From: Nemertoderma westbladi
Taxonomy: Eukaryota; Animalia; Xenacoelomorpha
Assembly: GCA_032718475.1 (NCBI GenBank)
Contig: JAUCBJ010000160.1
Coordinates: forward strand, 5,108-69,107
Direction: 5' to 3'
DNA length: 64,000 nt
Part shown: positions 1 through 23,259 of the stretch, in pieces
How the letters are laid out: each line of letters starts with the position of its first letter
Numbering within the stretch: position 1 is the first letter of the stretch
Position numbers and translations under genes: made by a program
Notes under the pieces: model-generated
Told to the model about the DNA's origin: nothing
Databases searched by the model: none
Seen by the model: only the letters and a program-made list of their open reading frames with translations

Positions 1-1
1 T

Positions 2-3000
2 GTTTCAAATGCTGTCATTCGCCCACCGGTTCAGTTTACATCGCAATCTACGACTTCGAGGAAGACTTGTGAGCCTACCGAACAACGGAGAACAGTGGAG
101 ACGCGACCGTTCAACCAGTTTACATCGCAATCTACGACTTCGAGGAAGACTTGTGAGCCTACCGAACAACGGAGATCAGTGGACGATGTTCCGAAACGAG
201 CCGTTAGAATTCGAACGACGCAACGGATGCGAGCACGTCGACCACCATATCCAGATGATAGTAGTACTTCGAGCGAATCGGATTACCCGAAACGCGAGGT
301 ATTTAGAACAGGGGCGGCCGATGAATATAAACGCGAGCGTTCAGACAACTCCTTTGCAGACAATCCTCCACAGAATACACCAACACAGAAGGCGTTACAA
401 CCAACGGACGCAATTAGTACACAACAGTTCGCCGACATTCTGCGACCAGTTGTCAACAAGTTGGCTCAGATCGAGGAGCGTCTGGAGGAAGTTCAAACCG
501 ATAGTTCGAGGAACACCGAATTCGAACACAATAGACACCCGAAGGCACCACAAAGACCGGTACCTTCAAACCCCACATCGTATCAGGGAAAAGCGCCAAG
601 AAGGGAGAACATCAACCAGGTTACCAACCAAGGACGCGAAACTCTGAACGTTGCTGAGGAGATAGCAAAATTCGCAGCCAGACAAGGATTGCCGGTACAA
701 CAACCACCGAAGTTTTCCGGTAGCTCAAAACACTGGCATACCTTCGTAGACTATATCGAATCCCAGATCGCCGTGTGCGCCTTTACATCACGGGAGAAGT
801 TCAATTACCTGCTCCAAACGTTGTCAGGAGAACCTAAACGTTTGGCGGAGACTTTCGTCGGTGTACCGGACGCTTTCGAACTAGCGTACGATCGTTTGAC
901 TTCGATATACGGAGGTACAGTGAGTATGGCCAGGTCAGTAATAGAGGAACTCTGTAAGGGAGGGGCTATCACTAAACCCGTCGACTTACTAAAACTGGCT
1001 GACGAGATTAAGAACGCTATCACTACCTTAAGATCAATTGGACAACTTGATTACGGGAATACCCCTACAGTTCTATTAAAGATAATAGGACGACTCCACC
1101 ATCGACTTCGTCGGGAGTGGAGGAAGGTCGAATACCAGCGAGAGGAGCGGGGAGGATTCTTAAAATTAGAAGATGTGTACCTTTTAATATCCAGGGAGGC
1201 GGTAGTAGAAACTCGATCTAACTATACCGACCAGCACATCGTGGCAGAAGGGATCACACTGCCATCCTCCAACCGACAAAAACCCCAGACAACATCCACA
1301 AAGACGGCCACTTACGCCACACCGACGGAATCACGACAATTCTCAGACGGTAATAGAGTATCTGCGCCCATTGGGACGAAACAGACGAGACAGCAACTCA
1401 GCGCCGACTTCAACGGCTGCCAATACTGCGAACATTTAGGTAAGCGGTATATTGGTCACAAGTTACGAGGTTGTCGACAATTTCGCGAGTTGAACTCAGA
1501 AGAACGACGGCTGCAGATACGGCCACTGGACTCTTGTTGGCGGTGTACGCGACACGGACACGTCCGTAAGGATTGCCCAAATACCGACACTTGTCCATCC
1601 TGTGGACGCAACCACGACGGTCTGCTCCACACAGACAGCCACACGCCGACGAAACGCTTCGCCAGGGAACACCCGGAAGCAGCAGCGAGATGTGATGCGG
1701 CTTACCGAAAACGAGAATCGAAAACGACTCCGACTTTCGTGACCCATATAGAGGATTGCTTTTCAGAACAATCCGGATCGTCGGACGAAGAATCAGACGA
1801 CGACGAATATTCTAATGGAGACGAACAACCGTCAATCGCGCTCCTGACCACTGACCAACTGAAGGGATTCAGTGTAATCCCGATTAAAGTTACTGGCACA
1901 AAAGGGAGTAAGAGGATTTACGCGATTCTAGACTCAGCCTCATCTCACAGTTACGTGGATGAAAAGATAGCTGACGTCGTAACGGATCTCAGACAAGGTA
2001 AACACGTAAGTTATACAGTAAGTAGTATGCATGGCCAGCGTGCAATACCAGTGACACGAGTTAAGTTGGACTTAGACTCTCTTCTTCCAAAATCGCAACA
2101 CAGCGAGAGGGAGAGATCTTTGTTACCCTTTAGAGATCTAACCTTTGCGGCCACGAAGGACTTTAGTAACCTACTAGGTCCAGTGCCGGAACAATCTCTG
2201 GAGGACCGTAAGTATTTCAGACACCTTGGTGTACCCGAATGTCCTGTCAATTATAGATCAGTAGCAATGCTGATCGGGACGGACCAATTCAACCTACATC
2301 AGGTGTGGGAAACCAGACCATCGGCAGTTGTAGCAGGAAACGCATACGCCTGCAGAACGCCGATAGGGTGGTATACACGAGCGCCTGTGCGCACACTAGA
2401 CGTAAGTGACGAGGAAGACGATGTACAGAGTACATGTAGTTTATTAACTACAAATTCAATTCATTCCTTTTCACACGACGTGAACCATACTACGCTACAG
2501 TCGACAAAACATGACAGACGTGTAACTAGTATGATAAGTCACAAGGAGCAGCTAATCCACAAGGTGAGTTTAGAACTTGGGGAGAAGACGAGTCAGCTAG
2601 AGATTCCATCGACGACAGATGATAGGCTTGCGAGTCTACCTACCCCAATAACCTCAACAGTGCCCATCGATATCGACGATGACGCGTTGAAAATTCATCA
2701 GTTGGAACAAGCCGCCTTGGACAAAGAATTAACGGAGAAGACTATCAGGTGGTTAGAACAAGATACGGCTGAACCTGGTAGCTACGACCCTTGTATGTCG
2801 GAACAGGAGAAACAATCTCTAAAGATCATGGAGGATACTATCCGACAGACGGAGGACGGACATTACGAGGTGGGGATGTTATGGCGTAGCCAAAGTCCTA
2901 AACTTATAAATAACTACCCACTGGCTTTAAGACGTCTACACTCAATCCGACAACGTCTATTAAAGGACGAGAAAGCCCATCTGCAGTATAACACTCAGAT

Positions 3001-6000
3001 GGAGACGTATTTGACGAAGGGATACGCTATCAGAATGACTAACCCGGAGCGAGTGACCGACCAGACATACTACCTGCCACATCACTATGTGAGACATCCC
3101 GATAAACCAGACAAAGTACGTGTAGTCAATGACTGTGCGGCTCTATTTGAGGGAATGTCCCTCAATAGTGAGTTGATGGATGGACCGAACATGAATAATT
3201 ATCTTATGGGGGTGATTATGCGCTTCCGTCAGCGCCAAGTAGCCTTTACTTGTGACGTTGAAGCGATGTTTCACCAAGTAAAAGCGTTAGAGCGAGACAG
3301 AGACAGTTTGCGGTTTCTCTGGTATCCGGAAGGGGACTTAAGTCTACCACCAGCGACTTACCAAATGCAAGTTCGCGTTTTCGGTGCCAGAGACAGCCCA
3401 AATTGTACGATGTACGCCTTGAAGCAAGCCGCTAGAGATCAGAAACATCTGTATGACCCAGAGATAATTAGAATTGTAGAACGTGACTTTTACGTTGACG
3501 ACGGATTACAGAGTTGCGACACAGTAGAACGTGCTACAACAGTAGCACATCAATTACGGGACTGCTTGGCGAGCGGAGGTTTTAACCTCACCAAATTCGC
3601 CTCAAACAGTGCCGAATTAGTTGACTCATTCGGAACTACTGAGCGTGGAGGTGGTGACATAGACCTAGAGTTCGAACCACTACCGACGACTAAGGTGTTG
3701 GGGCTCTTTTGGGACCCAAACACAGACAACTTTCGAGTGAAGGTGAGACTGGACAGTCAAGGAAACACACTGACCAAGAGATCATGCTTGTCAAAGTTGA
3801 GCCGATTGTTCGACCCGTTAGGATTCATCAGTCCAGTGATACTGCAAGCCCGCATTTATATGCGCAGTATATGGAAGGATGGACTAACGTGGGACGAGCC
3901 GATCTCATCAGATCAAGTGGACTTATGGAAGACCTGGGAGGCGGAATTGTCTTCGTTAGAGGATTATTCCATACCCAGGGTTTACTTTCCATTACAGAGT
4001 ACATTTCCTGACAACTTGGAACTACACTGTTTTTCCGACGCCAGTGACAACGGGTTTGGTGTGGCAGCGTATTTGCGCAGACAAGTAGAATCAGACGAGT
4101 TCGATGTTTCGCTCATTACTTCCAAGGCTAAGACCATGCCTACTAAGTATATGACGACACCACGAGCCGAGCTACAAGCCGCGACCCTGTCAACCACCAT
4201 CGTGAACCTCATACAGACAGAACTACAGTCGAGTTTACAGATATTTTATTGGACTGACGCGACGTTGGTTTTATTTTACATAAACAACGACACACTCGAA
4301 TTCAAGACATTCGTAGCTAACCGTCGCGCAGAGATTCTAGACCGTTCGATAAAAGAGGATTGGCGACATTGTCCCGGACCACAAAACCCAGCTGATATTG
4401 CGTCGCGAGGAATGATGCCTGAGGAATTCTGTAAACCGGAGAACAAAGAGTTTTGGCAACACGGACCCCAGTTCTTGCAGAAATCGACACAAGATTGGCC
4501 TCCGTTATACGACAACAAGTCCAACACCATTCCTAAGGACGCCGAAATCAAGAAACCAAAAAAGGGGAAGACAAAGAAAAGGACGACGGCGGCGAAACTA
4601 AAGAAAAAACCGAAGGCGAAATGGAAGGATATAACTTCAAAGGTCAAGAGAGGAAGACTTGCGAGCCTTTCTACACCAGACATATCGCCAGACGGTCAAC
4701 CAGACACGTTACTAGACAGTCAACCAGACATTTTGCCAGACATATCACAAAATGTTCCACCAGACGCTAGTAACACACTGACAAACAGTAAAGCCGCAGT
4801 TTCTCTATTGGAGCGGCCTTCTATTGACAAACTACCAGATACGTTACCAGACGTATCGCCAGACACATTACTAGACAGTCGACTAGACATTTTGTCAGAA
4901 ACATCACAAAATGTTCTACCGGACATTAGTAATGTATCAACTAACAGTAAAGCCGCAGTTTCCCTATTGGAGCGGCCTTGTATTGACAAACTACCAATTT
5001 TGACACACTTGAGCAACCATAAGCATGGTGAAACCTCATGTATTGCAGATGTGGGTAGTACCTACGCTAATGTAAATACAGGTGTTACTTTGCGCTCAAG
5101 AGACATACCGAACTTACAACCTATGGTGAGACCTGGGATTAATGTCGGCAGGAAAATAAGTTTACCGAAACCTGCTGACCCCATAGAGTTCAAACCACCA
5201 TTAACGATCGACTTACAAAGTACTGACGATCAAGGTAAGAAGACGAAGAAGGACAAATTACTTGTAGACCCGGACGGATCAACAGTCAACAAGGGAATAC
5301 TTACCGGCGGACCCGTGGGCCCTTCTAGTAATTCAAAACCTTCCAAGTTCTCCATTGACTTACCTGATGACGTCACAAATACTTACGTCGACCGTATCGT
5401 AAACTTAACAGACTCTTGGTCAAACGCTTGCCGAAAATTAGCGTGGATTGTACGTTTTGTACAATACGTTAAAGGCAAACGTGACTTTACACGTCGACTT
5501 ACATTGGCTGAGATTGACAGGTGTGAGATTAAATTAATTCGCCATTACCAACTGCGATATTTCGCGCGCGAATTCACATCTATACATCAAGGTCAACCAA
5601 TCAAGTCGTCACCGATACTGAGTTGGAGTCCGATAATTTATAATGGCTTACTTTGTCATAAATCTCGGCTTCAAAACATTGACTTTAACACAAACTTTAG
5701 GTACCCAATAATAATACCGCAACATCACGAACTACAACGTGCAATGATACTGGACGCACATTTACATCTGAAACACGCTGGAAGACACCACTGTCTTTCC
5801 TACTTACGTACTAGATTTGTATTAATTAGACCCAGTAAAGCATTAAGTTCAGTGACACGTACGTGTATTATTTGTAAAAAGGTACATTCTAGAATAGGTA
5901 CCCAAGAAATGAGTGAACTACCACAAGCACGACTTCAAGCATTCAGACCACCTTTTACAGAGACTGGAATTGATTGCTTTGGTCCCATACATACTAAACG

Positions 6001-6895
6001 TGGACGTATACTAGTAAAACGCTGGGGACTGATTTTCACATGTATGTCCAGTAGGGCAGTTCACATTGAACGTGTGATGGATCTTTCCACCAACGCGTTT
6101 ATACTAGCACTGCGGCGATTTATCGCTAGACGCGGACTAGTAAAATGCTTGTACTCAGACCAAGGGACAAACTTTGTTGGTGCTCGGAATGAGATTGCTA
6201 GAGCCTTTAAGAGATTAGATCATGATCAAATCTCGAACGAACTGCAACCTCACAAGATTGTTTGGAAGTTTAATCCTCCAGATAGTCCTTGGAGAGGCGG
6301 AGTCTGGGAGAGATTGATTAGATCTATCAAAACGGCCATGGCAAAGGTCATTCCAGTAAACCACATATTAACAGACGACCAACTGACAACATTGTTTGTT
6401 GAAATCGAGGCAATACTAAATACTAGACCAATAGTATTAGTACCCGATGACAAACAATCTCAGTTCGCTTTAACACCAGCACACCTGCTTATGCAGGCAC
6501 CGACCACATTGACGCCGATTTCCATTCCAATGGAAAGCGATAGTTACGTGAGAAAAGCGTGGAAAATCACGCAACTACTGGCTAACAAATTCTGGGAAAT
6601 ATGGCAAAACCATTATTTGCCCTCTATTTCTGCCAGAACAAACTGGTATAATAACACCCGCGCATTAAAGCCGGGAGATCACGTGCTGTTGGCAGAAGTG
6701 AATCTAAAAAGACGCTTCTGGATAACAGGTGTCATTTTAGCCACACATCCATCTATGGATGGAGTGACAAGAACTGTGACGGTACGAACAATTGAGGGTC
6801 GCACAGTAGACAGACCGACTCAACGTCTCGTACTTCTTGAAGAGACTCGTAACGAGTCTGGAGACTACAAATCTCCACCTAATACTAGTAAATAA
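2..6895 (+). CDS. BEL/Pao Gag-Pol polyprotein (frame open from window edge, 5'-partial)
   Basis: Gag PPKFSGSSKHW and knuckles CQYC..H..C, CWRC..H..C, CPSCGRNHDGLLH; protease AILDSAS; RT YYLPHH, DVEAMFHQV, FYVDD; RNase H CFSDAS, TPRAELQAA, WTDA; integrase H-H/CIIC, IDCFGP, SDQGTNFVGA, GGVWERLI. No stop in this frame from position 2. Confidence 0.96.
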   Translation, partial: VSNAVIRPPVQFTSQSTTSRKTCEPTEQRRTVETRPFNQFTSQSTTSRKTCEPTEQRRSVDDVPKRAVRIRTTQRMRARRPPYPDDSSTSSESDYPKREVFRTGAADEYKRERSDNSFADNPPQNTPTQKALQPTDAISTQQFADILRPVVNKLAQIEERLEEVQTDSSRNTEFEHNRHPKAPQRPVPSNPTSYQGKAPRRENINQVTNQGRETLNVAEEIAKFAARQGLPVQQPPKFSGSSKHWHTFVDYIESQIAVCAFTSREKFNYLLQTLSGEPKRLAETFVGVPDAFELAYDRLTSIYGGTVSMARSVIEELCKGGAITKPVDLLKLADEIKNAITTLRSIGQLDYGNTPTVLLKIIGRLHHRLRREWRKVEYQREERGGFLKLEDVYLLISREAVVETRSNYTDQHIVAEGITLPSSNRQKPQTTSTKTATYATPTESRQFSDGNRVSAPIGTKQTRQQLSADFNGCQYCEHLGKRYIGHKLRGCRQFRELNSEERRLQIRPLDSCWRCTRHGHVRKDCPNTDTCPSCGRNHDGLLHTDSHTPTKRFAREHPEAAARCDAAYRKRESKTTPTFVTHIEDCFSEQSGSSDEESDDDEYSNGDEQPSIALLTTDQLKGFSVIPIKVTGTKGSKRIYAILDSASSHSYVDEKIADVVTDLRQGKHVSYTVSSMHGQRAIPVTRVKLDLDSLLPKSQHSERERSLLPFRDLTFAATKDFSNLLGPVPEQSLEDRKYFRHLGVPECPVNYRSVAMLIGTDQFNLHQVWETRPSAVVAGNAYACRTPIGWYTRAPVRTLDVSDEEDDVQSTCSLLTTNSIHSFSHDVNHTTLQSTKHDRRVTSMISHKEQLIHKVSLELGEKTSQLEIPSTTDDRLASLPTPITSTVPIDIDDDALKIHQLEQAALDKELTEKTIRWLEQDTAEPGSYDPCMSEQEKQSLKIMEDTIRQTEDGHYEVGMLWRSQSPKLINNYPLALRRLHSIRQRLLKDEKAHLQYNTQMETYLTKGYAIRMTNPERVTDQTYYLPHHYVRHPDKPDKVRVVNDCAALFEGMSLNSELMDGPNMNNYLMGVIMRFRQRQVAFTCDVEAMFHQVKALERDRDSLRFLWYPEGDLSLPPATYQMQVRVFGARDSPNCTMYALKQAARDQKHLYDPEIIRIVERDFYVDDGLQSCDTVERATTVAHQLRDCLASGGFNLTKFASNSAELVDSFGTTERGGGDIDLEFEPLPTTKVLGLFWDPNTDNFRVKVRLDSQGNTLTKRSCLSKLSRLFDPLGFISPVILQARIYMRSIWKDGLTWDEPISSDQVDLWKTWEAELSSLEDYSIPRVYFPLQSTFPDNLELHCFSDASDNGFGVAAYLRRQVESDEFDVSLITSKAKTMPTKYMTTPRAELQAATLSTTIVNLIQTELQSSLQIFYWTDATLVLFYINNDTLEFKTFVANRRAEILDRSIKEDWRHCPGPQNPADIASRGMMPEEFCKPENKEFWQHGPQFLQKSTQDWPPLYDNKSNTIPKDAEIKKPKKGKTKKRTTAAKLKKKPKAKWKDITSKVKRGRLASLSTPDISPDGQPDTLLDSQPDILPDISQNVPPDASNTLTNSKAAVSLLERPSIDKLPDTLPDVSPDTLLDSRLDILSETSQNVLPDISNVSTNSKAAVSLLERPCIDKLPILTHLSNHKHGETSCIADVGSTYANVNTGVTLRSRDIPNLQPMVRPGINVGRKISLPKPADPIEFKPPLTIDLQSTDDQGKKTKKDKLLVDPDGSTVNKGILTGGPVGPSSNSKPSKFSIDLPDDVTNTYVDRIVNLTDSWSNACRKLAWIVRFVQYVKGKRDFTRRLTLAEIDRCEIKLIRHYQLRYFAREFTSIHQGQPIKSSPILSWSPIIYNGLLCHKSRLQNIDFNTNFRYPIIIPQHHELQRAMILDAHLHLKHAGRHHCLSYLRTRFVLIRPSKALSSVTRTCIICKKVHSRIGTQEMSELPQARLQAFRPPFTETGIDCFGPIHTKRGRILVKRWGLIFTCMSSRAVHIERVMDLSTNAFILALRRFIARRGLVKCLYSDQGTNFVGARNEIARAFKRLDHDQISNELQPHKIVWKFNPPDSPWRGGVWERLIRSIKTAMAKVIPVNHILTDDQLTTLFVEIEAILNTRPIVLVPDDKQSQFALTPAHLLMQAPTTLTPISIPMESDSYVRKAWKITQLLANKFWEIWQNHYLPSISARTNWYNNTRALKPGDHVLLAEVNLKRRFWITGVILATHPSMDGVTRTVTVRTIEGRTVDRPTQRLVLLEETRNESGDYKSPPNTSK
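31..183 (+). repeat. 84-bp period direct duplication in gag N-terminus
   Basis: CAGTTTACATCGCAATCTACGACTTCGAGGAAGACTTGTGAGCCTACCGAACAACGGAGA occurs twice, 84 bp apart. Confidence 0.9.
4680..4997 (+). repeat. 159-bp (53-aa) in-frame duplication between RNase H and integrase
   Basis: ACAGTAAAGCCGCAGTT at 4785 and 4944; PDTLLDS..DIL...SQNV.PD.SN..TNSKAAVSLLERP.IDKLP occurs twice. Confidence 0.9.
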
Positions 6896-7558
6896 TTAGG
6901 AGTTTACAAATAGATTTCCACGTACCTGTACACCGTAGTAAGGACAGCGGTAGAATTCCATTGTCTTTATATGTGAACATTGAGGGTAGTACCCTTATGT
7001 GTCACATAGGAGCGGGATTTGTAGGTATAAGAAATGGAATTCTACTTGGAACTCACAATATTGAGACATTTTCGAAATTTTAGACAATCCATTTGGATTT
7101 GAAAAATTTTTAAAATTTTCTCCAGTGAATAGATTTCAGGGTACAGTCGGGTGGAACTTAAAATTAGAGAAACAAGAGAGGAAGACTTGCGAGCCTTTCT
7201 TAAAATTTTTAATTAAATTTTACACGGTCTTGTTTCAATAAGTTACGTCAAAATAGACTCCCCTATATTTATTACTAATTCTTGACTGCTTATTTTCTGA
7301 TAATAGTTTGGGATCAAAAGGTGAGTATTTTAGACTCACGGCCAGTTTAGCCCAAATTCGTTTTTACTTCGGCAAAAAAAAAATTTTAGATAAGAAGCAG
7401 CGTGTCATTAAAGAAACCCTAGATCTTAGGCTATGGGTAGGAGGTTAGAGCGTTGTCGAGCCAAAAGGGCAGACGAAACTCTCACGTCTCCTCACAACTA
7501 ACTACAAACTCTGTTGTATTCCCTCTAGTAGTAATGATTATGTAACTACACCCTAATT

Positions 7559-10500
7559 ATGGAGAAAGGGATACAAGGAGAGCCGAGATGGGGATATGAT
7601 ATCCAAGAGGAGGCAGCAGCGCCATTCGAAAGATTTGGAGCCAAGGATTACACTATATTTGGTATAAAAGAATTATCGGAAAGTACAGCGAAACTCGCGA
7701 GAACTAAATATGACTCGAATGTATTAAAGAGAAGGCAAAACGCATTAAACGAAAGAATCGAAAGTTTGCGCCAAACCTTCAACGAACTTTACCCGTACGA
7801 TGCTTTGTGTGATACGGGAGACATTAGCGAAGACCCCGATACTGAAATTAGTCGTTTGTATCATACCATGCAATACCTAAAGGCGCACGAACCTATGCCT
7901 GCGGTACGCGATGAATTCGATGGAATGCATCTTTACAGACGAACTCGAGGGGACGATAGAGAAACCAAGGAAGCATTTTCAGTTTATAAACTTTATTATC
8001 AATGCGGTTCTTGTATGCGTGAACAACGAAATGCGATTCCGATGCGTTTGAATAAGGAAAATCCCGAACCGATATTGGCGAGATGTTCGAATCATCAACA
8101 ACTACGCTACCAGGAAGGAGGGTATCCTTTATCGAATCCATATCATTCATTTGCTATGACCGGACCAAAGGCGGGAGAAACTGTCATTTACCCACCTAAG
8201 GTTGTTGAACCCGATGTATTTGAACTTACGCTGGACGAGGCGAATCAGTCAACCCGCGAAAAGAAAGAAGCTCTTAGCCTATACAGAGCCTACAAGGCTT
8301 TCGAGAAAGGTGAGATGGAAGAATGGGGTGGAAGACTCGCGAGCCTACCTTGCCATTGGACGTCACACGATCAAACTTCAGCTAAGGAGATGACACCGGA
8401 AGTTTTCGAGAGCATAAACTTCGCTCAAAACGTTATTCAGAGACTACAGATTGCATCCCCGGAGAGGCCAAGAGAAATGCAACCGTATAGTACTGCAGCT
8501 ACGAAACCATTGAGTACGACACTCAACTTTCCTATTAGTATACCAGTCCGACAGGATACGACGTACGAAATACCCATCGTGGATCATCCAGAAATCATTT
8601 CAAACTTGGAGTTTCTTCCTGCAGTTGTTTTCAGCGATATGAGTAAGATATGTGATTTACGTAGACATATTACTCAAAAGGTCGTGAACAACGTTCCACC
8701 TCATATCCAAGATTTTAAGGAACTGGATAGAGCTGGTGCCGATATAGCTCCGAGTAATCTGAAAGGATATCTAACCAAGACGATTCGTTTATGGATTGGA
8801 ATCGGAACCTTCGAGTCGGATACAGATATTGCCGCAGATTGGCGAGGTAAGGTTATTCGTTTCGATGAGGATAAGGATATAGAGAAGATTTGGCAACCTT
8901 CGGAAGAATTGTTGGATGAATGGACTAGGACGTTTAGATCGTTTCAGGAAAACGGTTATATGTTTTACGATAACGAGGGCGGCAGTCATCAGCAGAGTTT
9001 GACTTCTAAGACTATACAGATTAGAGCGGCGGACGGAGTCCTGCACGTTTTCAGTAGACAGAGGAGCGACAAACGAATGCCGATACCTCCAGCGAATACA
9101 AAGCGACACCATCTTATCACCGATATAGTAAAGAAGATGGACCAAGCTTGTAATATTGACGCTAGAATGCTACCGAAGATGGTAAGAAACATGATTTTAG
9201 ATAAAACTGTTGTAAAGGTTGGATCAGGAGTAAGGGAGGATTTAATTAGCGACTTCGCCGGCATGACGGACAGCGATGACCGACTACCGACACCATACGT
9301 CGACACCCGACCTCTTATTCTGTGGTCTATAGAACAGGGATATTTTCGTGAGTATAATACTCAGAAGACTGGAACTGGATACATTTCCTACCTGTTATTC
9401 AATTGGGATTATAAGGAAGGTAAAAGAAACAAGTATATTGAAACTTATGGAGAAGGTGATACTCCAGATATGAGTGAGTTTGAATCACAGCTTAAATGGA
9501 GAGGATGCGTGTATTGGGCTATTACGTCACCTCCAAGAGCGGTCTTACAATATTATTTAGCAATAGAGTCGTCAGTGAATGTTTGCCTAATCGCCGACAT
9601 TGTGTCTCGGACTCTCAAAAGACATCCACTTTGTCTCGGAGAAGATCATACGTTCTACATGGAAGGGAGAATTCGTACCGACGTGTTTAGACGATTCCTT
9701 GAACCCTTCTACAACTCCGACGCTCAGTGTAATGCCTTTACTCGAGCAGGATTTAGTATATTTCGAGACGTGTATCTTCGCTGTGCGGGATCTCTTATCG
9801 AAAGACCATCTATGTTTACATTGTTACCCTATGAAGGAGAACGTATCGTGGAGATTATGGATGAATCACGGCAGACGCGCGCGTCTATCGGTCACCTCGG
9901 TGATGATTTCAACGTAACTACTACGATCGCCGACGATCCTTTAGAGGAACTTCTTGAGATTGAAAGGAACCTCCCGAAGAAATCTCAGACGGAGATTCGA
10001 CAACTTGAAGCAACAGATGCTATAGTTTGCCTACAACCTTCAGAAACCTACCAACCCATAGACCCAGATGATTACGATTATAGTGTGGGAGGAAGCGCTC
10101 GACCGATTGGAGATCTTATATACGAACGAGTGTGGTACCCTGCTAATACGATGTGTAGTAAATGTGGCGTCGCTGGACATCATATGGCAAAGTGCAGTGG
10201 AAAGCACATTACTACGACTCAGCTAATCTGTGGATGGTGTGGGGATCAAGGGTCTCATACCTTTTATACTTGCTGGAGATTTATGGCTCAGTGTACTTAC
10301 TGCAATATAAAGGGACATCGAGCATCTGAATGCCAACTAAGAGACATACCTTATGAACACGAATCTGTAAAACTCGTGAGGAAGTTATTTGATGAGTGGG
10401 AAGATTTGGCCGACGAACATGTATCGGCACAGAGAAGACGGTTTCCGATGAGAGCGCATCTCGGATTTTGGGCGGTAAATCCCCAGACGATGATGTCGGA

Positions 10501-11284
10501 AGGATATATCTCCGCTATGCCCCAATATGACGAACTTATCGAGGTTGTTGATATTTTGCCCCACGACAGCGGATTCCGAGTGGTGCGCGAGTATCTGTTA
10601 CAGATTCACCCGGATAACAAAAACACGTGGAATTTTCAGAAAGTCGTAAATCGTATCACGTATGGTGAATTTGATCGTTTCCGAACCGAAAAGCGGAATA
10701 AAGGAGCTTGGTTAACCGTCGCATGGGCGTACCGAGCCGCGTTTTACCATAAACGTATACGAGCGAGCGTATTCGAGGAAGAAGAGGTCCTAGAGGCGAC
10801 GAATATATCAGCCACTCCGGTTGCGCCGTCTGCACGTCACCCTCGGGAGGACGGACAGGGTAGGATCATACGGGTCCAGAAAGTGGGCCAACAATTGAAG
10901 AAAATTATTAATGTGGAAGAACGCAAGGGAGTTGAGCCGACTATTCGAGTTACTCGGGATACGGTATCACTTCCAAGAGAACCGGTAGGAGGATCGGGAC
11001 ATACACCAGCTGATCAACAGGGGGCGCAAGCTACTCTTGGGTCTGCGTCGTCCGCTTCTCACGCGTTCCCAGACGTTCTACCGACTGTAGTGACGACTGA
11101 TCGGTCACGAGGAATTGGTCGAGGTTTTGGGATGCCAAATAGACGAATTTGTGAGGAAATAGTCGCACCGTCTCTTAACGTCCCAAGTAAACCAGTGACT
11201 CGCCCCACAAGTCCCATATCGCGAGCAAAGTCACCTGTGCGCAGTTTTCGAGGACGCGGCAGGGCTCGATCCACTAAGCGATAA
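7559..11284 (+). CDS. Retrotransposon ORF2: DEDDy (WRN/Mut-7/EXD-like) 3'-5' exonuclease domain plus three CCHC zinc knuckles
   Basis: 1241-aa intact ORF. ExoI-like MFYDNEG (~8969), TIQI, LPKMVRNMILDKTVVKVGSGVREDL (ExoII-like, ~9170-9243), YVDT, ExoIII-like LQYYLAIE (~9545). Knuckles CSKCGVAGHHMAKC, CGWCGDQGSHTFYTC, CTYCNIKGHRASEC. Basic R/G-rich tail. Confidence 0.78.
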   Translation: MEKGIQGEPRWGYDIQEEAAAPFERFGAKDYTIFGIKELSESTAKLARTKYDSNVLKRRQNALNERIESLRQTFNELYPYDALCDTGDISEDPDTEISRLYHTMQYLKAHEPMPAVRDEFDGMHLYRRTRGDDRETKEAFSVYKLYYQCGSCMREQRNAIPMRLNKENPEPILARCSNHQQLRYQEGGYPLSNPYHSFAMTGPKAGETVIYPPKVVEPDVFELTLDEANQSTREKKEALSLYRAYKAFEKGEMEEWGGRLASLPCHWTSHDQTSAKEMTPEVFESINFAQNVIQRLQIASPERPREMQPYSTAATKPLSTTLNFPISIPVRQDTTYEIPIVDHPEIISNLEFLPAVVFSDMSKICDLRRHITQKVVNNVPPHIQDFKELDRAGADIAPSNLKGYLTKTIRLWIGIGTFESDTDIAADWRGKVIRFDEDKDIEKIWQPSEELLDEWTRTFRSFQENGYMFYDNEGGSHQQSLTSKTIQIRAADGVLHVFSRQRSDKRMPIPPANTKRHHLITDIVKKMDQACNIDARMLPKMVRNMILDKTVVKVGSGVREDLISDFAGMTDSDDRLPTPYVDTRPLILWSIEQGYFREYNTQKTGTGYISYLLFNWDYKEGKRNKYIETYGEGDTPDMSEFESQLKWRGCVYWAITSPPRAVLQYYLAIESSVNVCLIADIVSRTLKRHPLCLGEDHTFYMEGRIRTDVFRRFLEPFYNSDAQCNAFTRAGFSIFRDVYLRCAGSLIERPSMFTLLPYEGERIVEIMDESRQTRASIGHLGDDFNVTTTIADDPLEELLEIERNLPKKSQTEIRQLEATDAIVCLQPSETYQPIDPDDYDYSVGGSARPIGDLIYERVWYPANTMCSKCGVAGHHMAKCSGKHITTTQLICGWCGDQGSHTFYTCWRFMAQCTYCNIKGHRASECQLRDIPYEHESVKLVRKLFDEWEDLADEHVSAQRRRFPMRAHLGFWAVNPQTMMSEGYISAMPQYDELIEVVDILPHDSGFRVVREYLLQIHPDNKNTWNFQKVVNRITYGEFDRFRTEKRNKGAWLTVAWAYRAAFYHKRIRASVFEEEEVLEATNISATPVAPSARHPREDGQGRIIRVQKVGQQLKKIINVEERKGVEPTIRVTRDTVSLPREPVGGSGHTPADQQGAQATLGSASSASHAFPDVLPTVVTTDRSRGIGRGFGMPNRRICEEIVAPSLNVPSKPVTRPTSPISRAKSPVRSFRGRGRARSTKR

Positions 11285-11329
11285 AAGGGAGGGCAAGGGT
11301 GGACGGAAGACTCGTGGGCCTTTCTTATG

Positions 11330-11850
11330 ATTTGTGATTTATTTCGAATTATATGTTTTATATTTAGAAAATTTAGTAAACTTATATTTTATATTTGTGC
11401 TTATTTCGAACTTATGCAATTTGTATTGTTCCGAATTTATGAAATTTAGAAATAAGAACTCATATTTAGTAAACTTATATTTAGTAAGAATTTATATTTT
11501 ATATTTACGTGATTATTTCGAACTTATGCAATTTATATTATTCTGAACTTATGCAATTTATATTGTTCCGAATATTATGCAATTTATATCTTATAAGCAG
11601 TATTTGTACCTAAAGAGAAAGTTTTATAGACAGAAAAATTTGTGCTCAGAAAGACTCATATTTGTAATTATTCCAAAACTTATGCAATCTACATTTAGGT
11701 ACGAAAGTATTTGTAATTACTTGAATTTATGCAATATTTGAGATACAATAGTAGATGGAAGACTTGCGAGCCTTTCTTATTGTTTTCATTTATTTGTATT
11801 TGTAATTGTTTGAATTTATGCAATATCTGAGATGCAATAGATTTATATTG
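11330..11850 (+). repeat. Degenerate AT-rich repeats (GAACTTATGCAATTT core) in retrotransposon 3' UTR
   Basis: Repeated TTCGAACTTATGCAATTT / GAATTTATGCAATAT units. Confidence 0.75.
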
Positions 11851-12073
11851 GTGAATTTAATTTAGATTTATATTGTACTTACTTAGTAAAGCCATAAATA
11901 CGTAAAGTTTGAATTTGTAATTATTTTTGTATCGAATCATTACGTAAAAAGGAAGTATTGTTTGAAATTTAATTGTAAATATGTAAGTACGCCCTAAGTA
12001 TTCCATAGTTTGATTGATTATTGGTGAAAACCGTATATTTTATGCACGATAATATCCTGTTTTCATGGAGCGG

Positions 12074-12684
12074 TATAGAATTATATTCCCTAAATGCCGT
12101 GGATTTTCAAAATTTTATTTTATTCGAATTAACTTTGTAAAGATTGCTTTGAGTTCTCATTAGTATTGGTTCTATCTATCGTGTATCTATCGGTCAAGTG
12201 GTTCAGTAGCTCAGTTGGTAGAGCGTTGGAAATTATATGTGTAGTAGGTATCGAGTTCGAATCCTAGTAAGTGCGAATTATTTTTTGTGCAGAATTTCAA
12301 CTCATTTAAATTAACCGCTACAAATTAATTGCATTTGTCTGTACCAATAAGGCTGTAGTTATTTGATTGTAACCAATGTCGTGCAAGTTATATATTAGCT
12401 GGACCAATAAGCTATCTTTAAAACCTTGTTAGAATCTATAGAACAATCGAGAATTTTCTCGATTGATTGCGGCACAAATTTGGTATAAAAAGGTGCGATT
12501 TCGTTCATTAATCTAATCTCTACTTACACTACTACTACTTTAGTATTCACTTTATTATCTTATCAATATTCTGTCGTGCTTAGTTTATTCTCAGATTACA
12601 TTGTATTATAATTGTATCTTCTGTAATAAAGTCAGAATATTCTCTCAGCTTTTCTGTTTTACTATGAATTCACTACGGTGAACA
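12074..12684 (+). repeat. Putative 3' LTR of the BEL element
   Basis: Purine tract GGAGCGG at 12067, TATAAAA at ~12485, AATAAA at ~12625, end ...GGTGAACA. The start could alternatively be TGTT at 12058. The 5' LTR is not in the window for comparison. Confidence 0.55.
12200..12286 (+). ncRNA. tRNA-derived Pol III-type unit inside putative LTR (not a functional tRNA)
   Basis: A box/D-arm TAGCTCAGTTGGTAGAGC, B box GAGTTCGAATCC (12253-12264), T6 run at 12281-12286; anticodon arm does not pair. Confidence 0.6.
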
Positions 12685-13999
12685 AACTCAGGGACAGGAT
12701 GGCCGGCTAGAGATCGGGCCGCAGCAATGAACGGGAACATCACGGGAATGTAGACGAGAGACAACCCGCAATACCATTTAAAGTTATTCGCCCATCGCCT
12801 GAAAGGTTAGACAGCGTTCGATCCTTGCTACCTAAGTATAAGACCAAAAGATCAAAGGTAGACGTAGTGACACGCTGCAAGCCTAAAATTACATCATAGG
12901 GACTGTACTGTCTTGATTCAGGGAAAACCGCAGTAGACCTTCATATTCCTACGGGGGGGAGGGAGAGAGAGCAGATACTAGTACGCAGATAGGACGTAGG
13001 CACACCGGTACAAGGCATACACATTGGTTAGGGTGCAGCGAACTGTACGCTTAACTCTTGCTAAGTACAGGTGTGTGTGCGACTATTTACCGTACAACGG
13101 TGTCCGTTACATCAGAACTTGTAGGCTAGGGGGGTTGCTGTGTTTTCACCTGAATGGGGATTGTACCGTTCAGGCGGTAGGGCAGTTTACGCTAGGCGCA
13201 AATAAATTGAGGCTATCAGGGATATACTAACATCTACCGTGTCCCCGCCAACGCCCTAATAGGAAGTTACCTGGACTACCTGGGTGACTAAAATTCTAGA
13301 TAGGAGCCAGGATAGCTATTAGTACCCGTACGCCTACAGTAGTAAACTAACACATCTCTTCTTAGTATCAGGGACCTGGTACCTAAAATTGCCGAATTCT
13401 GGGCGTAGTATTAACCTTATGCCTGAATTTGAGTCCTGGAAATACGCAAGAGGGGAAGGAACCTTATCATTCGTGAGTATTGGACCTACAAGTTACAAAA
13501 TTAGAATATTCGTAAAATGCACACCGTACCCAGTAATTATATATGTGAAGGAGCAAAACTGCTTTTGACCGTTCAGAATTAACACGCGCGTTAGAAATTA
13601 TTTACACCTCAAAATATATAAAATTAACTTTCGTCCTTACTGCACTTTGCTCGCTAGTTAGACATCTCCAAATATCTGCCTCTATACCTAGCTAGCGTCC
13701 CTTTGCCCAACCATATAAATCACACCGCGGCAAAGTATACGAGCCCCTTAGTCCGTCAGTGAGTCAGCCTGATTTTAGGATTCGCTGCGCGGGATTTGTT
13801 TTATCGAAGTTTGTCTGCTCGTAGACTGTTTTCTGCCTCACCGGTTAAAAGAGATCGATACTGCAATATATTCGCTTACTTAGGGTTTACTGTTTTGGTG
13901 AGAAGGTCGGATTTATGATTTGATTTACAAACTTTACAGTAGGATATTGCAGGTATTGTTACCGTCTCTTCCGATAGTAGGAATAGGCGTATCTCTCCA
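12685..13999 (+). mobile_element. Possible unrelated LTR-like fragment into which the BEL element inserted
   Basis: More GC-rich non-coding segment with TATAAAT (~13714) followed by TCAGT ~40 bp downstream, ending ...CTCCA. No partner copy seen. Confidence 0.25.
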
Positions 14000-14119
14000 A
14001 TTTAATTTATCTCTTTAACTGTGCAACTACTGTGTATATTACTTTACCTGTGTAACAATTTCTCTCTGTATTTTTGTAACTAATTATCTCCTTACCTGTG
14101 TAACTATATCACTGCTTAC

Positions 14120-14268
14120 CTGTGTAAATATTCCTTTCGTTGTTGGCTCCATTGTAGTTGTTGTAATAGGTGTGCCACCGTAAGTTTGGGGTGCTTCAGC
14201 TGTTGATGTTGCCTCATTTAGCACAGCAGCAACATTAGATATAAACTGACTGGCATTACGAACACTCC
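14120..14268 (-). CDS. Polycystin-1/REJ-like gene, internal exon (4th visible)
   Basis: Acceptor tttttgatatgttatag, donor CAG|GTAAGC, phase 1 to 0. Encodes GSVRNASQFISNVAAVLNEATSTAEAPQTYGGTPITTTTMEPTTKGIFTQ, resembling the helical segment after the REJ domain. Confidence 0.7.
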
Positions 14269-14285
14269 CTATAACATATCAAAAA

Positions 14286-16420
14286 GACTTAGTCTGCGTG
14301 CTAGCAGAACAACGAAATCTGCCTTGCCGCGGCATGACTGGTCCTCTCTGTTGCAACAGCCAAGTGTGAGATCCAGCTTCACACTACAGCTGAGCAACAG
14401 GTATGAGGCAGATGCGGCAGATCACTGTGAGGGCTATACTGCCTTTACAGAAGCAGTTAAGTTAGCAGCTGCAGAAACAGTTCCTGTATACCCTCGAAAC
14501 AGGAAAAGGGCCCCCTGGACTGACAACAAAATTCAGAAGTGCCGAAATGACCTTCATAAGGCGCAGAAAGAGTCCCGACTCAAACAGACTACAGCGGCCA
14601 AGAATGCAGTTAAGGCTGCATCTAGGTCCCTGAACAGGCAGTACTCTGCTAATCTACAGGAGGTAATAAACCAACAGGTTGATGCCATCAATGATGCTGA
14701 CGACAGCAGGCAATCAATGGTTGGAAAGCCCACTTTGAAAAGCTCCTCAATAATGACAGGGTATTGCCTGATAACTTTATAGAAGTAAAAGTGTCTGAGT
14801 CTGTACTCCCAGATATTCCCATTGGCGATGTCTCCTTTGCAGAAGTGAAGGCTGCTGCAAAGAGCATTAAGACCAATCGTGCCAGTGGAGTAGATGGTGT
14901 TCCCCCTGAGGTCTTTAAAATACTTGAGTGTTTAAAGCTCATCTATCGCATCATAGTAGACATGTACCGAACAACAAGAGTCCCACAAGAAATGAAAACA
15001 AATAAGTTGGTGCCAGTTCCCAAGAAGGGCAACCTAACACTCTATGGTTCTTTTCGGGGAATCTCATTGATCTCGATTGCTGCAAAGCTATACAATAGGA
15101 TTCTATTAAATCGCATCAGGGATCCCATTGAGAGACTGCTCCGTGGAAATCAGAATGGGTTCCGTAAAGGTCGTGGAACCATGGAGCCCATTTTGGCACT
15201 TAGAAGGATAATTGAAGAGTTATCAAAAAAGAAAGACAGGCATCTGGCTGTTATCTTTGTTGACTTCTTCAAGGCCTTTGATTCAGTCTCTCGCTCACGT
15301 ATGTTCAGCATACTTTCATTATATTGGATTCCTGATGAAATTATTGCAGCAATCAGATCAGTATACGATGGTTCGACAACATTTGTGTCTACTGTTGACG
15401 GTGACACAGAACCATTTGAAGTGTTATGGGGCGTCCTCCAGGGAGACACACTTGCACCATTCTTGTTCATTATTGTGGTTGACTATGTTCTACGCATGTC
15501 CTTAGATCATTATAATGATGATGGGGTGATGATAACTCCACCTAATGGCTCCAGAAGTCGAGGAAATCCTGCCAAGTACCTAACTGATCTAGACTTTGCT
15601 GATGACTTAGGAGTACTCTCAGAATCATTAGAGGGAGCCCAACGGCTCCTCAGCTCATCAGAACATGCTGCTTCTAGTGTTGGTCTTTTTATTAACTCTA
15701 GAAAGACCAAAATTCTGAAAGTTAACTTTGAAAGTCCTCAGTAAGTCTCTGATCGGATGAGCATAAGCTCAAAGGATGGTATGCTTGAGCATGTGGACGA
15801 CTTCTGTTACCTGGGATCATGGATCCGGAAGTCAGGTGAGGACCTTCGAATACGTAAGGGAAAGGCATGGGCAGCCTTGAATAGGCTTTCCAGGATTTGG
15901 AAGTCACCGAGAATTAATCGGAAACTTAAGGTCCGATTATTTAGAGCAGCAGTAGTTCCAGTACTCCTCTACGGGAATCCATGCTGGGCTCTAACTGCTG
16001 AGGACACCAAATCTCTGGATGGCACATTCACAAGAATGCTACGCCGGGTACATTGTGTCAAGTACAATGCACACATCTCCAACCAGACTCTATATAACAT
16101 TGGAGGGGTCTCATTGGTTCCCCCAAGCTTGACACTAGAACAAAATCGCCTCCGCTTTGCAGGACATTGCTTTCGCCGTGAGGACCAGCCAGTGCTTAAT
16201 CTTGTACTTTGGCAGCCTCATGGAGTGAATAAGCATGGTGGACAGCCCATGACTTTCTTGAGACGCATCTTAAAGGACACTGGCCTTAAAGATGCGGATG
16301 ATCTAGCAAATGTCATGGGTGATAGGGAGTTGTGGCGGTGCAATTTCGTTGACAAGCCGGCACAGCATTCTTAAAAATGCAGCTGCAATGCAGCATGCCG
16401 ATCCTAGTAGTAGTAGTAGT
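14286..16420 (+). mobile_element. 5'-truncated RTE-clade LINE, copy 1 (frameshift and premature stop)
   Basis: RT motifs VPVPKKG, FRGISL, QNGFRKGR, FVDFFKAFDSV, GVLQGDTLAPFLF, LDFADD, FCYLGS, RLRFAGHC. (TAG)n tail. 15-bp TSD ATAACATATCAAAAA at 14271-14285 and 16421-16435. In-frame TAA at 15742. Confidence 0.93.
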
Positions 16421-17053
16421 ATAACATATCAAAAACGATGTAGAATACCGGTAGTATTAATATATTATATTATTTAAATATATATCTTATTTAAATGATC
16501 AAAGTTTTCATTTAAAAGTTAATTTTCTAAATGCTAAATCGTGTTGGCTAAAACTGTTTATTTTTCAAAAAGAAAGTAAAACTTTGTTGTCCAGCTCTTT
16601 AATCCGCCTTTTTGAGCTAATTAAATTAATAATTACTAACGTAGATCTGGAATAAATAATTCGAAATCAACAAAATAAATCTCTGGATCGTTGTTTGGAT
16701 ATAATTATTAATTTCTTGGAAGAAATATTATAACTTTTTTTCACTACACTCGAGGAATTTTATTACGGAACGCCAGTGAAGGGTCGAGAATGATTGAAAA
16801 AATATTCTATGATTTTTCTTATTCTTATTTTTTCCAAAATAATAAAAGTAATTTAAAAATAATTTTCCAAAGTAATACGTAATTTGAATCTTAAATTGGT
16901 ACTTTTTGTTGCTCAATTCTTTAATAAAATAATAGCGATATAGTGTTACAAAATAAATTGAACTGCGGTATTTTCCTATATTGCTTCCATAGTTACTGCG
17001 ATTCAAATTACTGTACTCTTCAACTCCTATAGTCAGGTCGCTTAGCAAGTTAA

Positions 17054-19950
17054 TGTGGACGTTTTGGACAAACTTCCCATAATTGGAATAGGTGTAGGTA
17101 ATTATCATACCTTTAATTTTTTAAGGGGAATCAACTTTGCAACATTATTTATCGGTCCCATCTTACCATGACAACAGGAGGTCATTTACAAAAGTCCACT
17201 TTCCAATAAACCTTCAGTCTTCTAACCTTAACCTACCCCCCATATATCAGCATCAGAGATTCCATTGACGTCATTTGTAAAACCCGGTTGCCATGGCAAC
17301 TGTTTCAAAAATGAATTTCAAACGCCGATTTTCAGTAAATATCCGAAAAATATAAAACCATTGATTAATAATTTTTGCCCATTTGGAAAAATTATCTAAC
17401 ATTATAAATATATTATCCCTGAGACCCTCTTGATTTCTAGTAGTGGATCAATTTAAATGGACCTGTGGTAGTCATGTAACCATGGTCACAAGTCACTAAA
17501 TATACTCTGCCAAATGTAATATAGTTCCGAACTATCTAAAAAAAAATCAATTTTGGATCTAGTGTCTTACATGTTGCCAAGTCCAGACAATTACTTTCCG
17601 ACCATTCAAGTTTGTCTCTGTTGCCATGGTGACCGATAACATTTGGAATGTGGACAAAATATTGAATAAAACATGTTCAGTTTACTTCAACTTTGATCAT
17701 ATGCACATGTCTTAGTTCCTCATTACGCAGTAGAGGTCTATTACCACTAGAACAGTCAATATAGTTACCATAGCAACGGGTATGTTTCATTATTTATGCA
17801 CTTCCGCTTTCTTATTTTTTTATACATTTGGAAGATAATAATTTTCTTGATTTGCAAAATATATATCTGGGGTCTATCATAGCTATTTTTTAATTATACA
17901 TAATTACTCATGACCATAGCAACGGGAGATTTCCATCTTATACACTAATTGATAGGTGGAATTTCTCAAAATTTTGTGAAACGGAACGTTTTTGACAGCA
18001 ATAACAAGATTTTTTCTTAGAGTGTTACATATAGAGGCAATACATCCTTAGCAACAGCGATTTTTGCATAGCTACGAGGAATTTTGCTCTAATTTTGTAG
18101 ATTTTCGCGTAACTACGACGAATTTAGTATTTATCAAAGCAACGTAATGTTTATATAGCTAGATAACAATTAATAAATCTATTAAAGTTTTTCGCATTGA
18201 CATTTGCAAAGTTCTGTACACTTCCAATTTGCAATTTTGCAAGCACATCCATTGTCACACCCTTTCTTACTCTTGCAAGCACACTTCATTAATTCCTTTG
18301 GTTCCTATGCTTTGGAAGCAATTGGAAGTATATTCCAGACAGGATTCCAAGATTGTGTTTCATCATCAAGTGACCATTCGAAATTATCGCTGGTACACAT
18401 TGGTCACTCTTATCGCTGGTACACTACATTCCTGCCTGGTAGGGTTCACGGTGGAAAGGTTCACGGTGGAAAGGTTCACGGTGGAAAGGTTTACGGTTGT
18501 AATTTATTATAAGACCAGTGAATTACAACATGTGAACGAATTAAGGAAGGTCCAAAAAACTTTAATAGATTTATAAATTGTTATCTAGCTATATAAACAC
18601 CACGTTGCCCAATATACCAATACCAATAAATACCAAATTCCAATAAATACCAAATTCGTCGTAGTTATGCAAAAATCTACCAAATCAAAGCAAAATTCCT
18701 CGTAGCTATGCAAAAATCGCTATTGCTAAGGATGTATTGCCTCTCATATGTAACACTCTAAGAAAAAACTTGTTATTGCTGTCAAAAACGCTCCGTTGCT
18801 AAGATATGTTCCAGGTAGCTATGGTAAATTCGTCGTTGCAATGTAAAACGTACCGTCGCTATGCAAAATCCGCCGTTGCTATGGAAAGCATTATACTGAT
18901 GCAGGAAACTTGTTTTTGCTTTGAATACCATATGAAATACTTTATGGTTGCTATGGAAAACCTATGTTGCTATGCAAGTATAGTAAGCAAACATAAATTA
19001 ATTTTGAAATTTTTGTCCATAATATGTTTCTATATACATTTTGAGAAATTCCACTTATCAATTAGTGTATAAGAGGAAAATCTCCCGTTGCTATAGTCAT
19101 GAGTAATTATGTATATTTAAAAAATAGCTATGATAGACCCCAGATATATAATTTGCAAATCAAGAAAATTATTACCTTCTAAATATGAAAAAATAAGAAA
19201 GCGGAAGTGCATAAATAATGAAACATATCCGTTGCTATGGTAACTATATTGACTGTTCTAGTGGTCATAGACCTCTACTGTGTAATTAGGAATTAAGACA
19301 TGTGCATATGATCAAAGTTGAAGTAAACTGAACATGTTTTATTCAATATTTTGTCTACATTCCAAATGTTATCGGTCACCATGGCAACAGAGACAAACTT
19401 GAATGGTCGGAAAGTAATTGTCTGGACTTGGCAACATGTAAGACACAAGATCCAAAATTGAATTTTTTTAGATAGTTTGGAACTATATTAAATTTGGCAG
19501 AGTTTATTTTGTGACTTGTGACCATGGTTACATGACTACCACAGGTCCATTTAAGTGGTCCACTACTAGAAATCAAGAGGGTCTCAGTGACAATATTTAT
19601 AATGTTAGATGATTTTTCCAAATGGGGAACAATTATTAATCAATGGTTTTATATTTTTCAGATATTTACTGAAAATCGGCGTTTGAAATTCATTTTTGAA
19701 ACAGTTGCCATGGCAGCCGGGATTTACAAAAGACGTCAATGGAATCTCTGATGCTGATATAAGTGGGGTAGGTCAAGGTTAGAAGACTGAAGGTTTATTG
19801 GAAAGTGGACTTTTGTAAATGACCTCATGTTGTCATGGTAATATGGGACCGATAAATCATGTTGCAAAGTTGGTTCCCCTTAAAAAATTAAAGGTATGTT
19901 AATTACCTACACCTATTCCAATTATGGGAAGTTTGTCCAGAACGTCCACA
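17054..19950. mobile_element. Non-autonomous foldback/MITE-like DNA transposon with ~1.1-kb inverted arms, TTAA-flanked
   Basis: 17054-18192 is the reverse complement of 18555-19950; the right arm has ~240 extra bp. TTAA at 17050-17053 and 19951-19954. No transposase ORF. Confidence 0.88.
18443..18497 (+). repeat. 15-bp tandem repeat (GGTTCACGGTGGAAA) in foldback spacer
   Basis: About 3.7 copies. Confidence 0.9.
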
Positions 19951-23022: not shown

Positions 23023-23259
23023 CTGAAACACAAATACGATAGATATATGGATAAGGGGTAATAGTTTCTAGGCTCTTTATGATAGGTAAGGACGATACTG
23101 AAAGTAAATAAATTAAGAATTGATAGGAAACTATATAGTACACAGGCCCTACCATAAAATCTAAAATAAACAATGTCTTATTTAAAAAAAATAATATTAT
23201 TTTAACTGTAGTTTTTGTAGAAACACTAGAAATAAAATGTATTTTTCTTGTATTTGTAT

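Follow-up and report, generated by a model that had tools for sequence, protein, structure and literature searches.

A BEL/Pao retrotransposon of Nemertoderma westbladi with a putative DEDDy-like exonuclease and zinc-knuckle gene in the env position

The element and its accessory gene

The window analyzed here, a 64-kb stretch of contig JAUCBJ010000160.1 from Nemertoderma westbladi (assembly GCA_032718475.1), opens within a BEL/Pao retrotransposon that carries an accessory gene in the position of env. This gene, open reading frame 2 (ORF2; 7559..11284, + strand), lies between gag-pol and a repeat of ~1.9 kb (~12074-13980) that resembles a long terminal repeat (LTR), and combines a putative 3'-5' exonuclease domain with three zinc knuckles. 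An earlier note on this DNA, made from the sequence alone, had described an intact ORF of 1241 aa between the integrase and a putative 3' LTR; the ORF scan, the gag-pol domains, and a step in run depth bear this out.

ORF2 begins with an N-terminal region (aa 1-444; 7559..8890) that has no assignable family and is not present in either of two homologous proteins (P0003 and P0004; see below). It is followed by the putative DEDDy/PF01612-like exonuclease domain (8891..9628), which is based on alignments and on feature and structure matches, an acidic linker (9659..10150; 18% Asp and Glu across aa 701-860) that is acidic also in the homologues, three CCHC zinc knuckles (10154..10333), and a conserved block 3' of the knuckles (10376..10558) that is common to P0003 and P0004; all these features are on the + strand. 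The knuckles, which the earlier note had likewise counted as three, occupy aa 866-925 and comprise C866-C879 (CX2CX4HX4C), C891-C905 (CX2CX5HX4C), and C912-C925; the Pfam match of ORF2 to zf-CCHC has an expectation value (E) of 0.023 and is below the cut-off of the family. ORF2 has no transmembrane segment (the highest 19-residue Kyte-Doolittle mean is 1.38) and matches no viral glycoprotein family in the Pfam and library scans, so that it does not classify as env. The earlier note had come to the same view; its statement on the transmembrane segment stands, and the part concerning a signal peptide was considered without a dedicated predictor.

The gag-pol ORF (2-6895, + strand; 2297 aa) is open at its 5' end at the window edge, and the 5' end of the element and its 5' LTR lie upstream of window position 1; the portion within the window alone exceeds 14 kb. 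Pfam matches above cut-off comprise the BEL/Pao-specific families Peptidase_A17 (E 2e-42), DUF5641 (1e-20), and DUF1759 (6e-11); Integrase_H2C2 is also matched. Motifs on the + strand mark the Gag knuckles (~1418-1640), the protease (LDSA, 1928), the reverse transcriptase (RT; YVDD, 3491), RNase H (~4037), and the integrase (HHCC, ~5759; core from 5969). Their order (Gag, protease, RT, RNase H, then integrase) is that in the definition of Belpaoviridae (PMC8742986). Because the three families score above their cut-offs and the domains from protease to integrase follow this order, the host element of ORF2 is, on sequence grounds, a BEL/Pao retrotransposon. Tandem duplications are present in gag-pol (4700-4996: 138 nt, 86%; 32-183: 68 nt, 99%), and the RNase H-integrase interval of pol contains a long low-complexity insert. 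An AT-rich spacer (6896..7558, + strand) with short upstream ATGs and one copy of a palindrome that is treated below separates pol from ORF2.

Relationship of ORF2 to DEDDy-type exonucleases

A HMMER scan of 1.84 billion protein representatives with ORF2 returned four proteins. P0002 and P0005 match through their knuckles alone and were dropped as homologues. P0003 (558 aa) and P0004 (605 aa), the remaining pair, are each a singleton in ENA assemblies, with phmmer E values of 2.5e-5 and 1.9e-4 against the 1.84 billion proteins; the pairwise BLASTP comparisons with ORF2 give 1.8e-13 and 6e-9. All three proteins run in the same order from the exonuclease through an acidic linker and three knuckles to a C-terminal block, and a layout that, by alignment, is shared with two independent proteins is more than chance. 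Word-index protein searches retained 0 of 5842 candidates, a search with P0003 retrieved only itself, and another retrieved only P0004, which because of length limits is no proof of absence. Locus scans for the exonuclease-knuckle family, RT, and the palindrome motif gave nothing related, and a tblastn search of phages was empty.

The predicted catalytic tetrad of ORF2 consists of D471 (8969) and E473 (8975) in the context YDNE (ExoI), D561 (9239) in KVGSGVRED (ExoII), and E670 (9566), which together with Y666 (9554) is part of YLAIE (ExoIII). The earlier note had located the motifs at these positions and had also recognized the Glu in place of Asp in ExoIII. In a joint MAFFT alignment, ExoI, ExoII, and ExoIII are in register with the homologues and with bacterial comparison proteins; the registered D-x-E of ExoI and Asp of ExoII (D471, E473, D561) agree with a DEDDy-type domain. 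Both P0003 and P0004 have canonical motifs (DTE / D / YLRxD). In ORF2, Y666 is kept and the replacement of Asp by Glu at position 670 is conservative, which makes the window copy a variant DEDE-y rather than a canonical DEDDy protein. ORF2 also has 25 aa inserted after ExoI.

For comparison with bacteria, 120 loci were selected by a motif-II-like pattern, and 101 ORFs of 150-260 aa were kept; all five proteins tested belong to PF01612. With hhalign, the alignment of the ORF2 family matches a bacterial PF01612 protein with a probability of 88% (E 2.9e-6) over 114 columns that extend from ExoI to beyond ExoII, and the probabilities obtained with this alignment range from 88 to 90% at scores of 44-49, compared to shuffle maxima near 21. 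The best match of the three-sequence domain profile in PDB is EXD2, a weak match (E 0.083) in which ExoII and ExoIII are aligned. Atlas features of aa 420-760 of ORF2 reach 0.93 with a cluster that is 50% PF01612, and 24 of 30 matches are in the PF01612 set; fungal clusters without a name fill the best three rows (0.93-0.94). Each of the 10 structure rows of P0003 is a cluster bearing PF01612 (TM-score 0.70-0.73 by target for the short ones), all of them under the naming bar of the tool and obtained with an Atlas model of pLDDT 0.44. The top feature match of P0003, a euglenozoan exonuclease with CCHC knuckles (0.87), is a lead only. AlphaFold models of the ORF2 region have pLDDT values of 31.7 and 34.3, which are too low for use, and fold searches with the second model were uninformative.

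Together, these sequence comparisons make a DEDDy/PF01612 fold of the middle domain of ORF2 very probable. Because ORF2, its isolated domain, P0003, and P0004 all remain below the PF01612 gathering score, the domain is filed as DEDDy-like and not as a member of that family.

Copies of the element, expression signals, and a dispersed palindrome

Contigs from four public runs (X1-X4) cover positions 1-15000 of the window in 29-30 of 30 bins. In X1 alone, 34,266 contig records fall on this span, which includes a piece of the flanking long interspersed nuclear element (LINE), at identities from <90% to >99%. The element is multi-copy, with many variant copies. Pieces that are ~85% alike cover ORF2, which indicates that diverged subfamilies also have the gene. 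In X1 and X3, the summed depth of ORF2 is ~0.7 times that of pol, and the LTR region reaches 2.0-2.6 times pol; depth is not a copy number and was used solely for locating steps. Such steps occur at ~12066 and ~14003, with near-zero depth beyond, but not at the edges of ORF2, and they support the putative 3' LTR of the earlier note. One contig joins foreign sequence to position 12074, and another leaves the element at 13971. That ORF2 is part of the element can be stated with fair confidence.

The 3' LTR inferred from depth and motifs (12074..13985, + strand; ends uncertain by ~10 nt) contains CCAAT motifs (12344, 12373, 12404), a TATA motif (12484), and AATAAA (12625), and is preceded by a short and weak purine-rich tract (12065..12073, + strand) as candidate polypurine tract. 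Its ends look like TAT...ATA, not TG...CA, and its length of ~1.9 kb, of which ~1.3 kb lie past the polyadenylation signal, is unusual. A purine run just past the ORF2 stop (11283-11293) was rejected as polypurine tract because there is no depth step at that site. The interpretation of 12650-13980 as the leader of a second element was also rejected; its raised depth is the same as that of 12066-12473 in X1, X3, and X4, and there is no clear primer-binding site. A tRNA-like segment in the U3 part (12196..12275, + strand) has the A-box (12207) and B-box (12255) of RNA polymerase III promoters and LTR-level depth; neither Rfam nor ARAGORN called an RNA gene, including this segment. Such tRNA-like segments in LTRs have been described for the non-autonomous Helenus terminal-repeat retrotransposons in miniature (PMC10886601, in part); here, the element is autonomous. 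Depth in X2 climbs steeply toward 12500 and falls thereafter, unlike that in X1, X3, and X4, which is compatible with a polyadenylated-RNA library or with amplified deleted copies.

The comparison among contigs rests on the listed rows, i.e., the 40 best-supported of 513 differences, 12 of 32 indels, and 15 of 131 joints. All 12 listed indels are non-coding and lie outside both ORFs. Twenty of the 40 differences are in pol (15 synonymous) and 11 are in ORF2 (6 synonymous and 5 non-synonymous). With an expected synonymous share of 0.22-0.30 for ORF2 (p 0.019-0.079), the latter are weak signs of purifying selection. The site of E670 is not among the 40 differences.

Upstream of ORF2, a candidate splice acceptor (7499..7531, + strand) combines a branch-like CTAAC, a 20-nt stretch with 14-15 pyrimidines, and a tandem TAG ending at 7528 and 7531. 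The TAG ends, the inferred start of the ORF2 exon, are located 28-31 nt upstream of the ATG, whose context is A at -3 and G at +4, and an upstream ORF of three codons is found between acceptor and ATG. Env-style subgenomic splicing is typical for ORF3 (PMC5408684, in part), and the layout upstream of ORF2 is, by prediction, that of this type of expression. The 15 listed of 131 joints include no splice-like joint to 7529 or 7532, which has no bearing on expression. A bacterial promoter scan remained at chance level and is irrelevant to a eukaryote.

An imperfect palindrome of 20 nt occurs in eight copies within 60-11776 and nowhere else in the 64-kb window. A query with one copy yields three exact matches and four with three mismatches, compared to none at ≤4 mismatches in 30 shuffles; the corresponding expectation of 0.02 applies to a pattern derived from the copies themselves. 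The copies span gag (60..79, + strand; 144-163, the latter in an 84-nt tandem duplication), pol (a divergent copy without assigned strand at 2621..2640, and 4652..4671, + strand, in the RNase H-integrase linker), the spacer (7180..7199, + strand), ORF2 (8330..8349, + strand), and the 3' untranslated region (UTR; 11305..11324 and 11757..11776, both + strand). Their presence in non-coding DNA and in two reading-frame offsets means that the palindrome is kept at the nucleotide level, and the copy in the coding sequence of ORF2 shows that the association of gene and element is old enough for ORF2 to bear a signal that belongs to the element. The palindrome could form a stem of eight pairs with a YGYG loop of 4 nt (84% of cells paired), but a stable hairpin is not supported, because folding z values range from +0.5 to -1.4 versus shuffles on either strand and covariation is not above that of shuffles. 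Twenty-six metagenome matches are single and have no BEL or exonuclease sequence around them; they were taken as chance. The literature searched contains no report of this palindrome. Contigs with a joint that links 11743 with 11295, together with loose ends at position 11608, suggest that the number of units in the 3' UTR differs among other copies of the element.

The remainder of the window contains other repeats. A non-LTR retrotransposon remnant (14222-16374) with several ORF pieces (RVT_1, E 3e-27) has very high run depth. It is followed by a long inverted-repeat element (17049-19955) that resembles foldback elements or miniature inverted-repeat transposable elements, with arms of ~1.1 kb at 93-97% complementarity, and by a satellite array of ~20 kb (~23100-43000) with a 41-nt (20+21) unit. 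A 396-codon open frame on the - strand (51590-52780) has no credible Pfam match, and an open Helitron-like ORF of 2739 aa (55784-64000) matches PIF1 helicase (E 7e-10) and, weakly, GIY-YIG (E 0.096).

Possible roles of ORF2

The env position, the intact frame, the Exo motifs, the knuckles, and the absence of a transmembrane segment form the observed base for a mechanism. By analogy, ORF2 is most likely a protein directed at RNA 3' ends. It is somewhat likely to be made from an env-style mRNA in which splicing would connect the leader in the 5' LTR with the 7528/7531 acceptor. On the model of trypanosome RNase D, its knuckles would likely grip single-stranded RNA and feed the 3' end to the exonuclease. 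The useful targets might be the host's silencing RNAs, or precursors of these and antisense transcripts, rather than replication intermediates of the element, although this step is more tentative. We offer as a tentative proposal that ORF2 is a transposon-encoded RNase D-type exonuclease with knuckles that may blunt the small-RNA silencing of the element by its host. Counter-silencing is favoured because the repeated capture of DEDD nucleases by unrelated elements fits a conflict with the host better than a function in core replication. Few suppressors of small-RNA silencing in animals are known to be encoded by transposons, and ORF2 offers a specific protein, together with a hypothesis on its substrate, for assays in vitro. 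It is improbable that ORF2, P0003, and P0004 go further and constitute an undescribed family for self/non-self discrimination of RNA, in which the knuckles would mark the element's own RNA via the 20-nt repeat and the exonuclease would trim or sequester silencing RNAs; if true, this would be a dedicated counter-defence module against PIWI-interacting and small interfering RNAs in the env slot of BEL/Pao elements.

Several observations weigh against a counter-silencing exonuclease. Neither Pfam and NCBIfam nor phmmer on PDB match an exonuclease in ORF2. The selection of the bacterial set by motif II makes the hhalign test partly circular, and masking of 10 motif columns lowers the scores to 19.7 (shuffle maximum 19.5) and 15.7 (shuffle maximum 22.4), with the residual alignment still on ExoI and in register. 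A bacterial hidden Markov model scores ORF2 at 2.4 bits, compared to 3.6 for the best of 900 shuffles (P0004 reaches 10.4). The fourth catalytic position is Glu in the window copy but Asp in both homologues and in 95 of the 101 bacterial proteins; none matched with Glu, and the remaining 6 gave no match. Among the copies, deletion joints (7698-9731 and 7718-9843) reveal that some lack most of the N-terminal region and the entire exonuclease; in X1 and X3 these joints are minor, whereas in X2 they are on a par with the local depth. The selection signal of ORF2 (11 sites in 10 codons) is weaker than the 15/5 of pol, and the listed contigs include none that spans from pol to ORF2 or from ORF2 to the LTR. 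Moreover, the DEDDy ORF3s of rotifers have no clear link to copy number and are themselves covered by small RNAs (PMC5408684, in part).

The unusual ExoIII motif also lends itself to a different explanation, namely that the exonuclease is impaired and ORF2 acts as an RNA-binding scaffold or decoy comparable to EXD1 or the inactive DEDD folds of the Maelstrom type. The Glu at the fourth catalytic position, which makes the nuclease activity of the window copy uncertain, the insertion after ExoI, the additional N-terminus of 444 aa, and the altered motif (DEED) of rotifer ORF3s (PMC5408684, in part) would all agree with such a role; it is nevertheless unlikely, as Glu is a conservative substitute for Asp and neither the tyrosine nor any of the other three acids has changed. 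The palindrome raises the question whether ORF2 acts on the element's own RNA instead. Its knuckles would then recognize the palindrome, and the protein would select, protect, or 3'-trim genomic or subgenomic RNA in the manner of Rev or a packaging helper. The restriction of the eight copies to the element within the 64 kb, their conservation at the nucleotide level, the potential 8-pair stem with its YGYG loop, and the fact that the copies at 8330, 11305, and 11757 would fall on the ORF2 subgenomic RNA all speak for this role. We consider it doubtful, because hairpin folding and covariation are no better than in shuffles, several copies stem from local duplication, nothing links the palindrome to ORF2, and it might just as well serve as a DNA site or as a ligand of Gag.

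It is improbable that ORF2 is a passenger of recent capture, or an insertion of its own, that does nothing for the element. Such a gene would account for the marginal selection signal, the deleted copies, and the lack of a listed contig that spans pol and ORF2 in other copies, and the variation of rotifer ORF3s within a genome (env and GDSL ORFs) also looked neutral (PMC5408684, in part). It is at odds with an intact, intronless frame of 3.7 kb that the listed indels avoid, with the presence of ORF2 in copies that are ~85% alike, with the element's palindrome in its coding sequence, and with the absence of any terminus or depth step at its edges, unlike those at the LTR. Even less probable is an action on DNA within the particle, where the enzyme would trim or proofread the 3' ends of cDNA like WRN, EXD2, or Pol A. 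Proofreading in large RNA genomes offers an analogy. PF01612 includes DNA exonucleases, EXD2 and Pol A clusters are among the matches, and the element, with >14 kb in the window, is long compared to the 4-10 kb of the ICTV profile (PMC8742986). However, ORF2 is not part of pol and is probably expressed on its own, hundreds of sites differ among the copies, and the closest architecture is that of an RNase (PMC7797062, in part).

Comparison with known systems

The interpretation of the earlier note stands in part, namely with respect to the BEL/Pao element, the non-env ORF, the DEDDy-type fold, the knuckles, and the Glu in ExoIII, but it overstated the novelty. The note knew of no description of this architecture; DEDDy ORF3s (PMC5408684, in part) and the combination of exonuclease and CCHC knuckles (PMC7797062, in part) have already been published. 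In trypanosome RNase D (TbRND; PDB 7c42/7c45), a DEDD exonuclease domain is followed by a linker and tandem CCHC fingers that bind RNA and raise cleavage (PMC7797062, in part). TbRND is an enzyme of the cell that trims guide RNAs and has four fingers and a linker of 28 aa (PMC7797062, in part), whereas ORF2 has three knuckles, a linker of ~170 aa, additional domains, and a location in a transposon; the knuckle matches of ORF2 to TbRND-type proteins are weak (E 4-5.5). The resemblance is probably convergent.

Among BEL/Pao elements, most have no third gene (PMC3118150, in part), and the third genes of Belpaoviridae in the ICTV profile are env-like only (PMC8742986). The window element shares with Cer13, Tas, and Atlas virus a single gag-pol ORF with the order protease, RT, RNase H, then integrase, and an extra 3' gene (PMC8742986; PMC3118150, in part), but its extra gene does not encode a glycoprotein. 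With >14 kb and an LTR of ~1.9 kb, it also exceeds the ranges given for Bel/Pao elements (4.2-10 kb and 0.2-1.2 kb). No report of an exonuclease-knuckle ORF in BEL/Pao, or of a knuckle fusion in a transposon, was found in a search that lay outside most subscription papers, Repbase, and the supplements of PMC3118150. A nematode Cer element may possess an exonuclease-like domain; the literature search did not bring one up, and PMC535339 (in part) covers only the env of that element.

The closest counterparts within transposons are found in bdelloid rotifers, whose Juno and Vesta LTR retrotransposons are gypsy-like lineages. Juno, Vesta, and the Terminons carry DEDDy ORF3s with an altered tetrad downstream of pol (Rodriguez et al. 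2017, PMC5408684, in part), a finding that is repeated in reviews (PMC5718144 and PMC6338049, both in part). Like ORF2, they are non-env ORFs past pol with an RNase D-like DEDDy fold, no transmembrane segment, and one acid of the tetrad replaced by Glu; the tetrad is DEED in the rotifers and DEDE in ORF2, and the available parts of the report describe no triple CCHC array but a Cys-His-Cys motif for Vesta2/5 (PMC5408684, in part). Juno and Vesta are non-BEL; here, the element is BEL/Pao, and ORF2 has 1241 aa with a 444-aa N-terminus of no assigned family. KolobokD likewise has a DEDD nuclease as transposon accessory protein, but it is a DNA transposon and its nuclease is of the DEDDh type (TREX/ERI1-like), not DEDDy (PMC9587614, in part).

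What the literature searched does not contain is the combination of a DEDDy-like exonuclease with triple knuckles in a BEL/Pao element; the kind of gene was already known from rotifer LTR elements. Unrelated elements have repeatedly acquired nucleases of the DEDD type (PMC5408684, PMC6431247, and PMC9587614, all in part), and what nuclease ORFs do in the env slot has been an open question since 2017 (PMC5408684, in part). ORF2 is intact and multi-copy, belongs to another LTR superfamily, and comes with an RNA-binding module, catalytically canonical relatives, and a candidate cis element; such a case suggests that cargo of this type is a recurring strategy.

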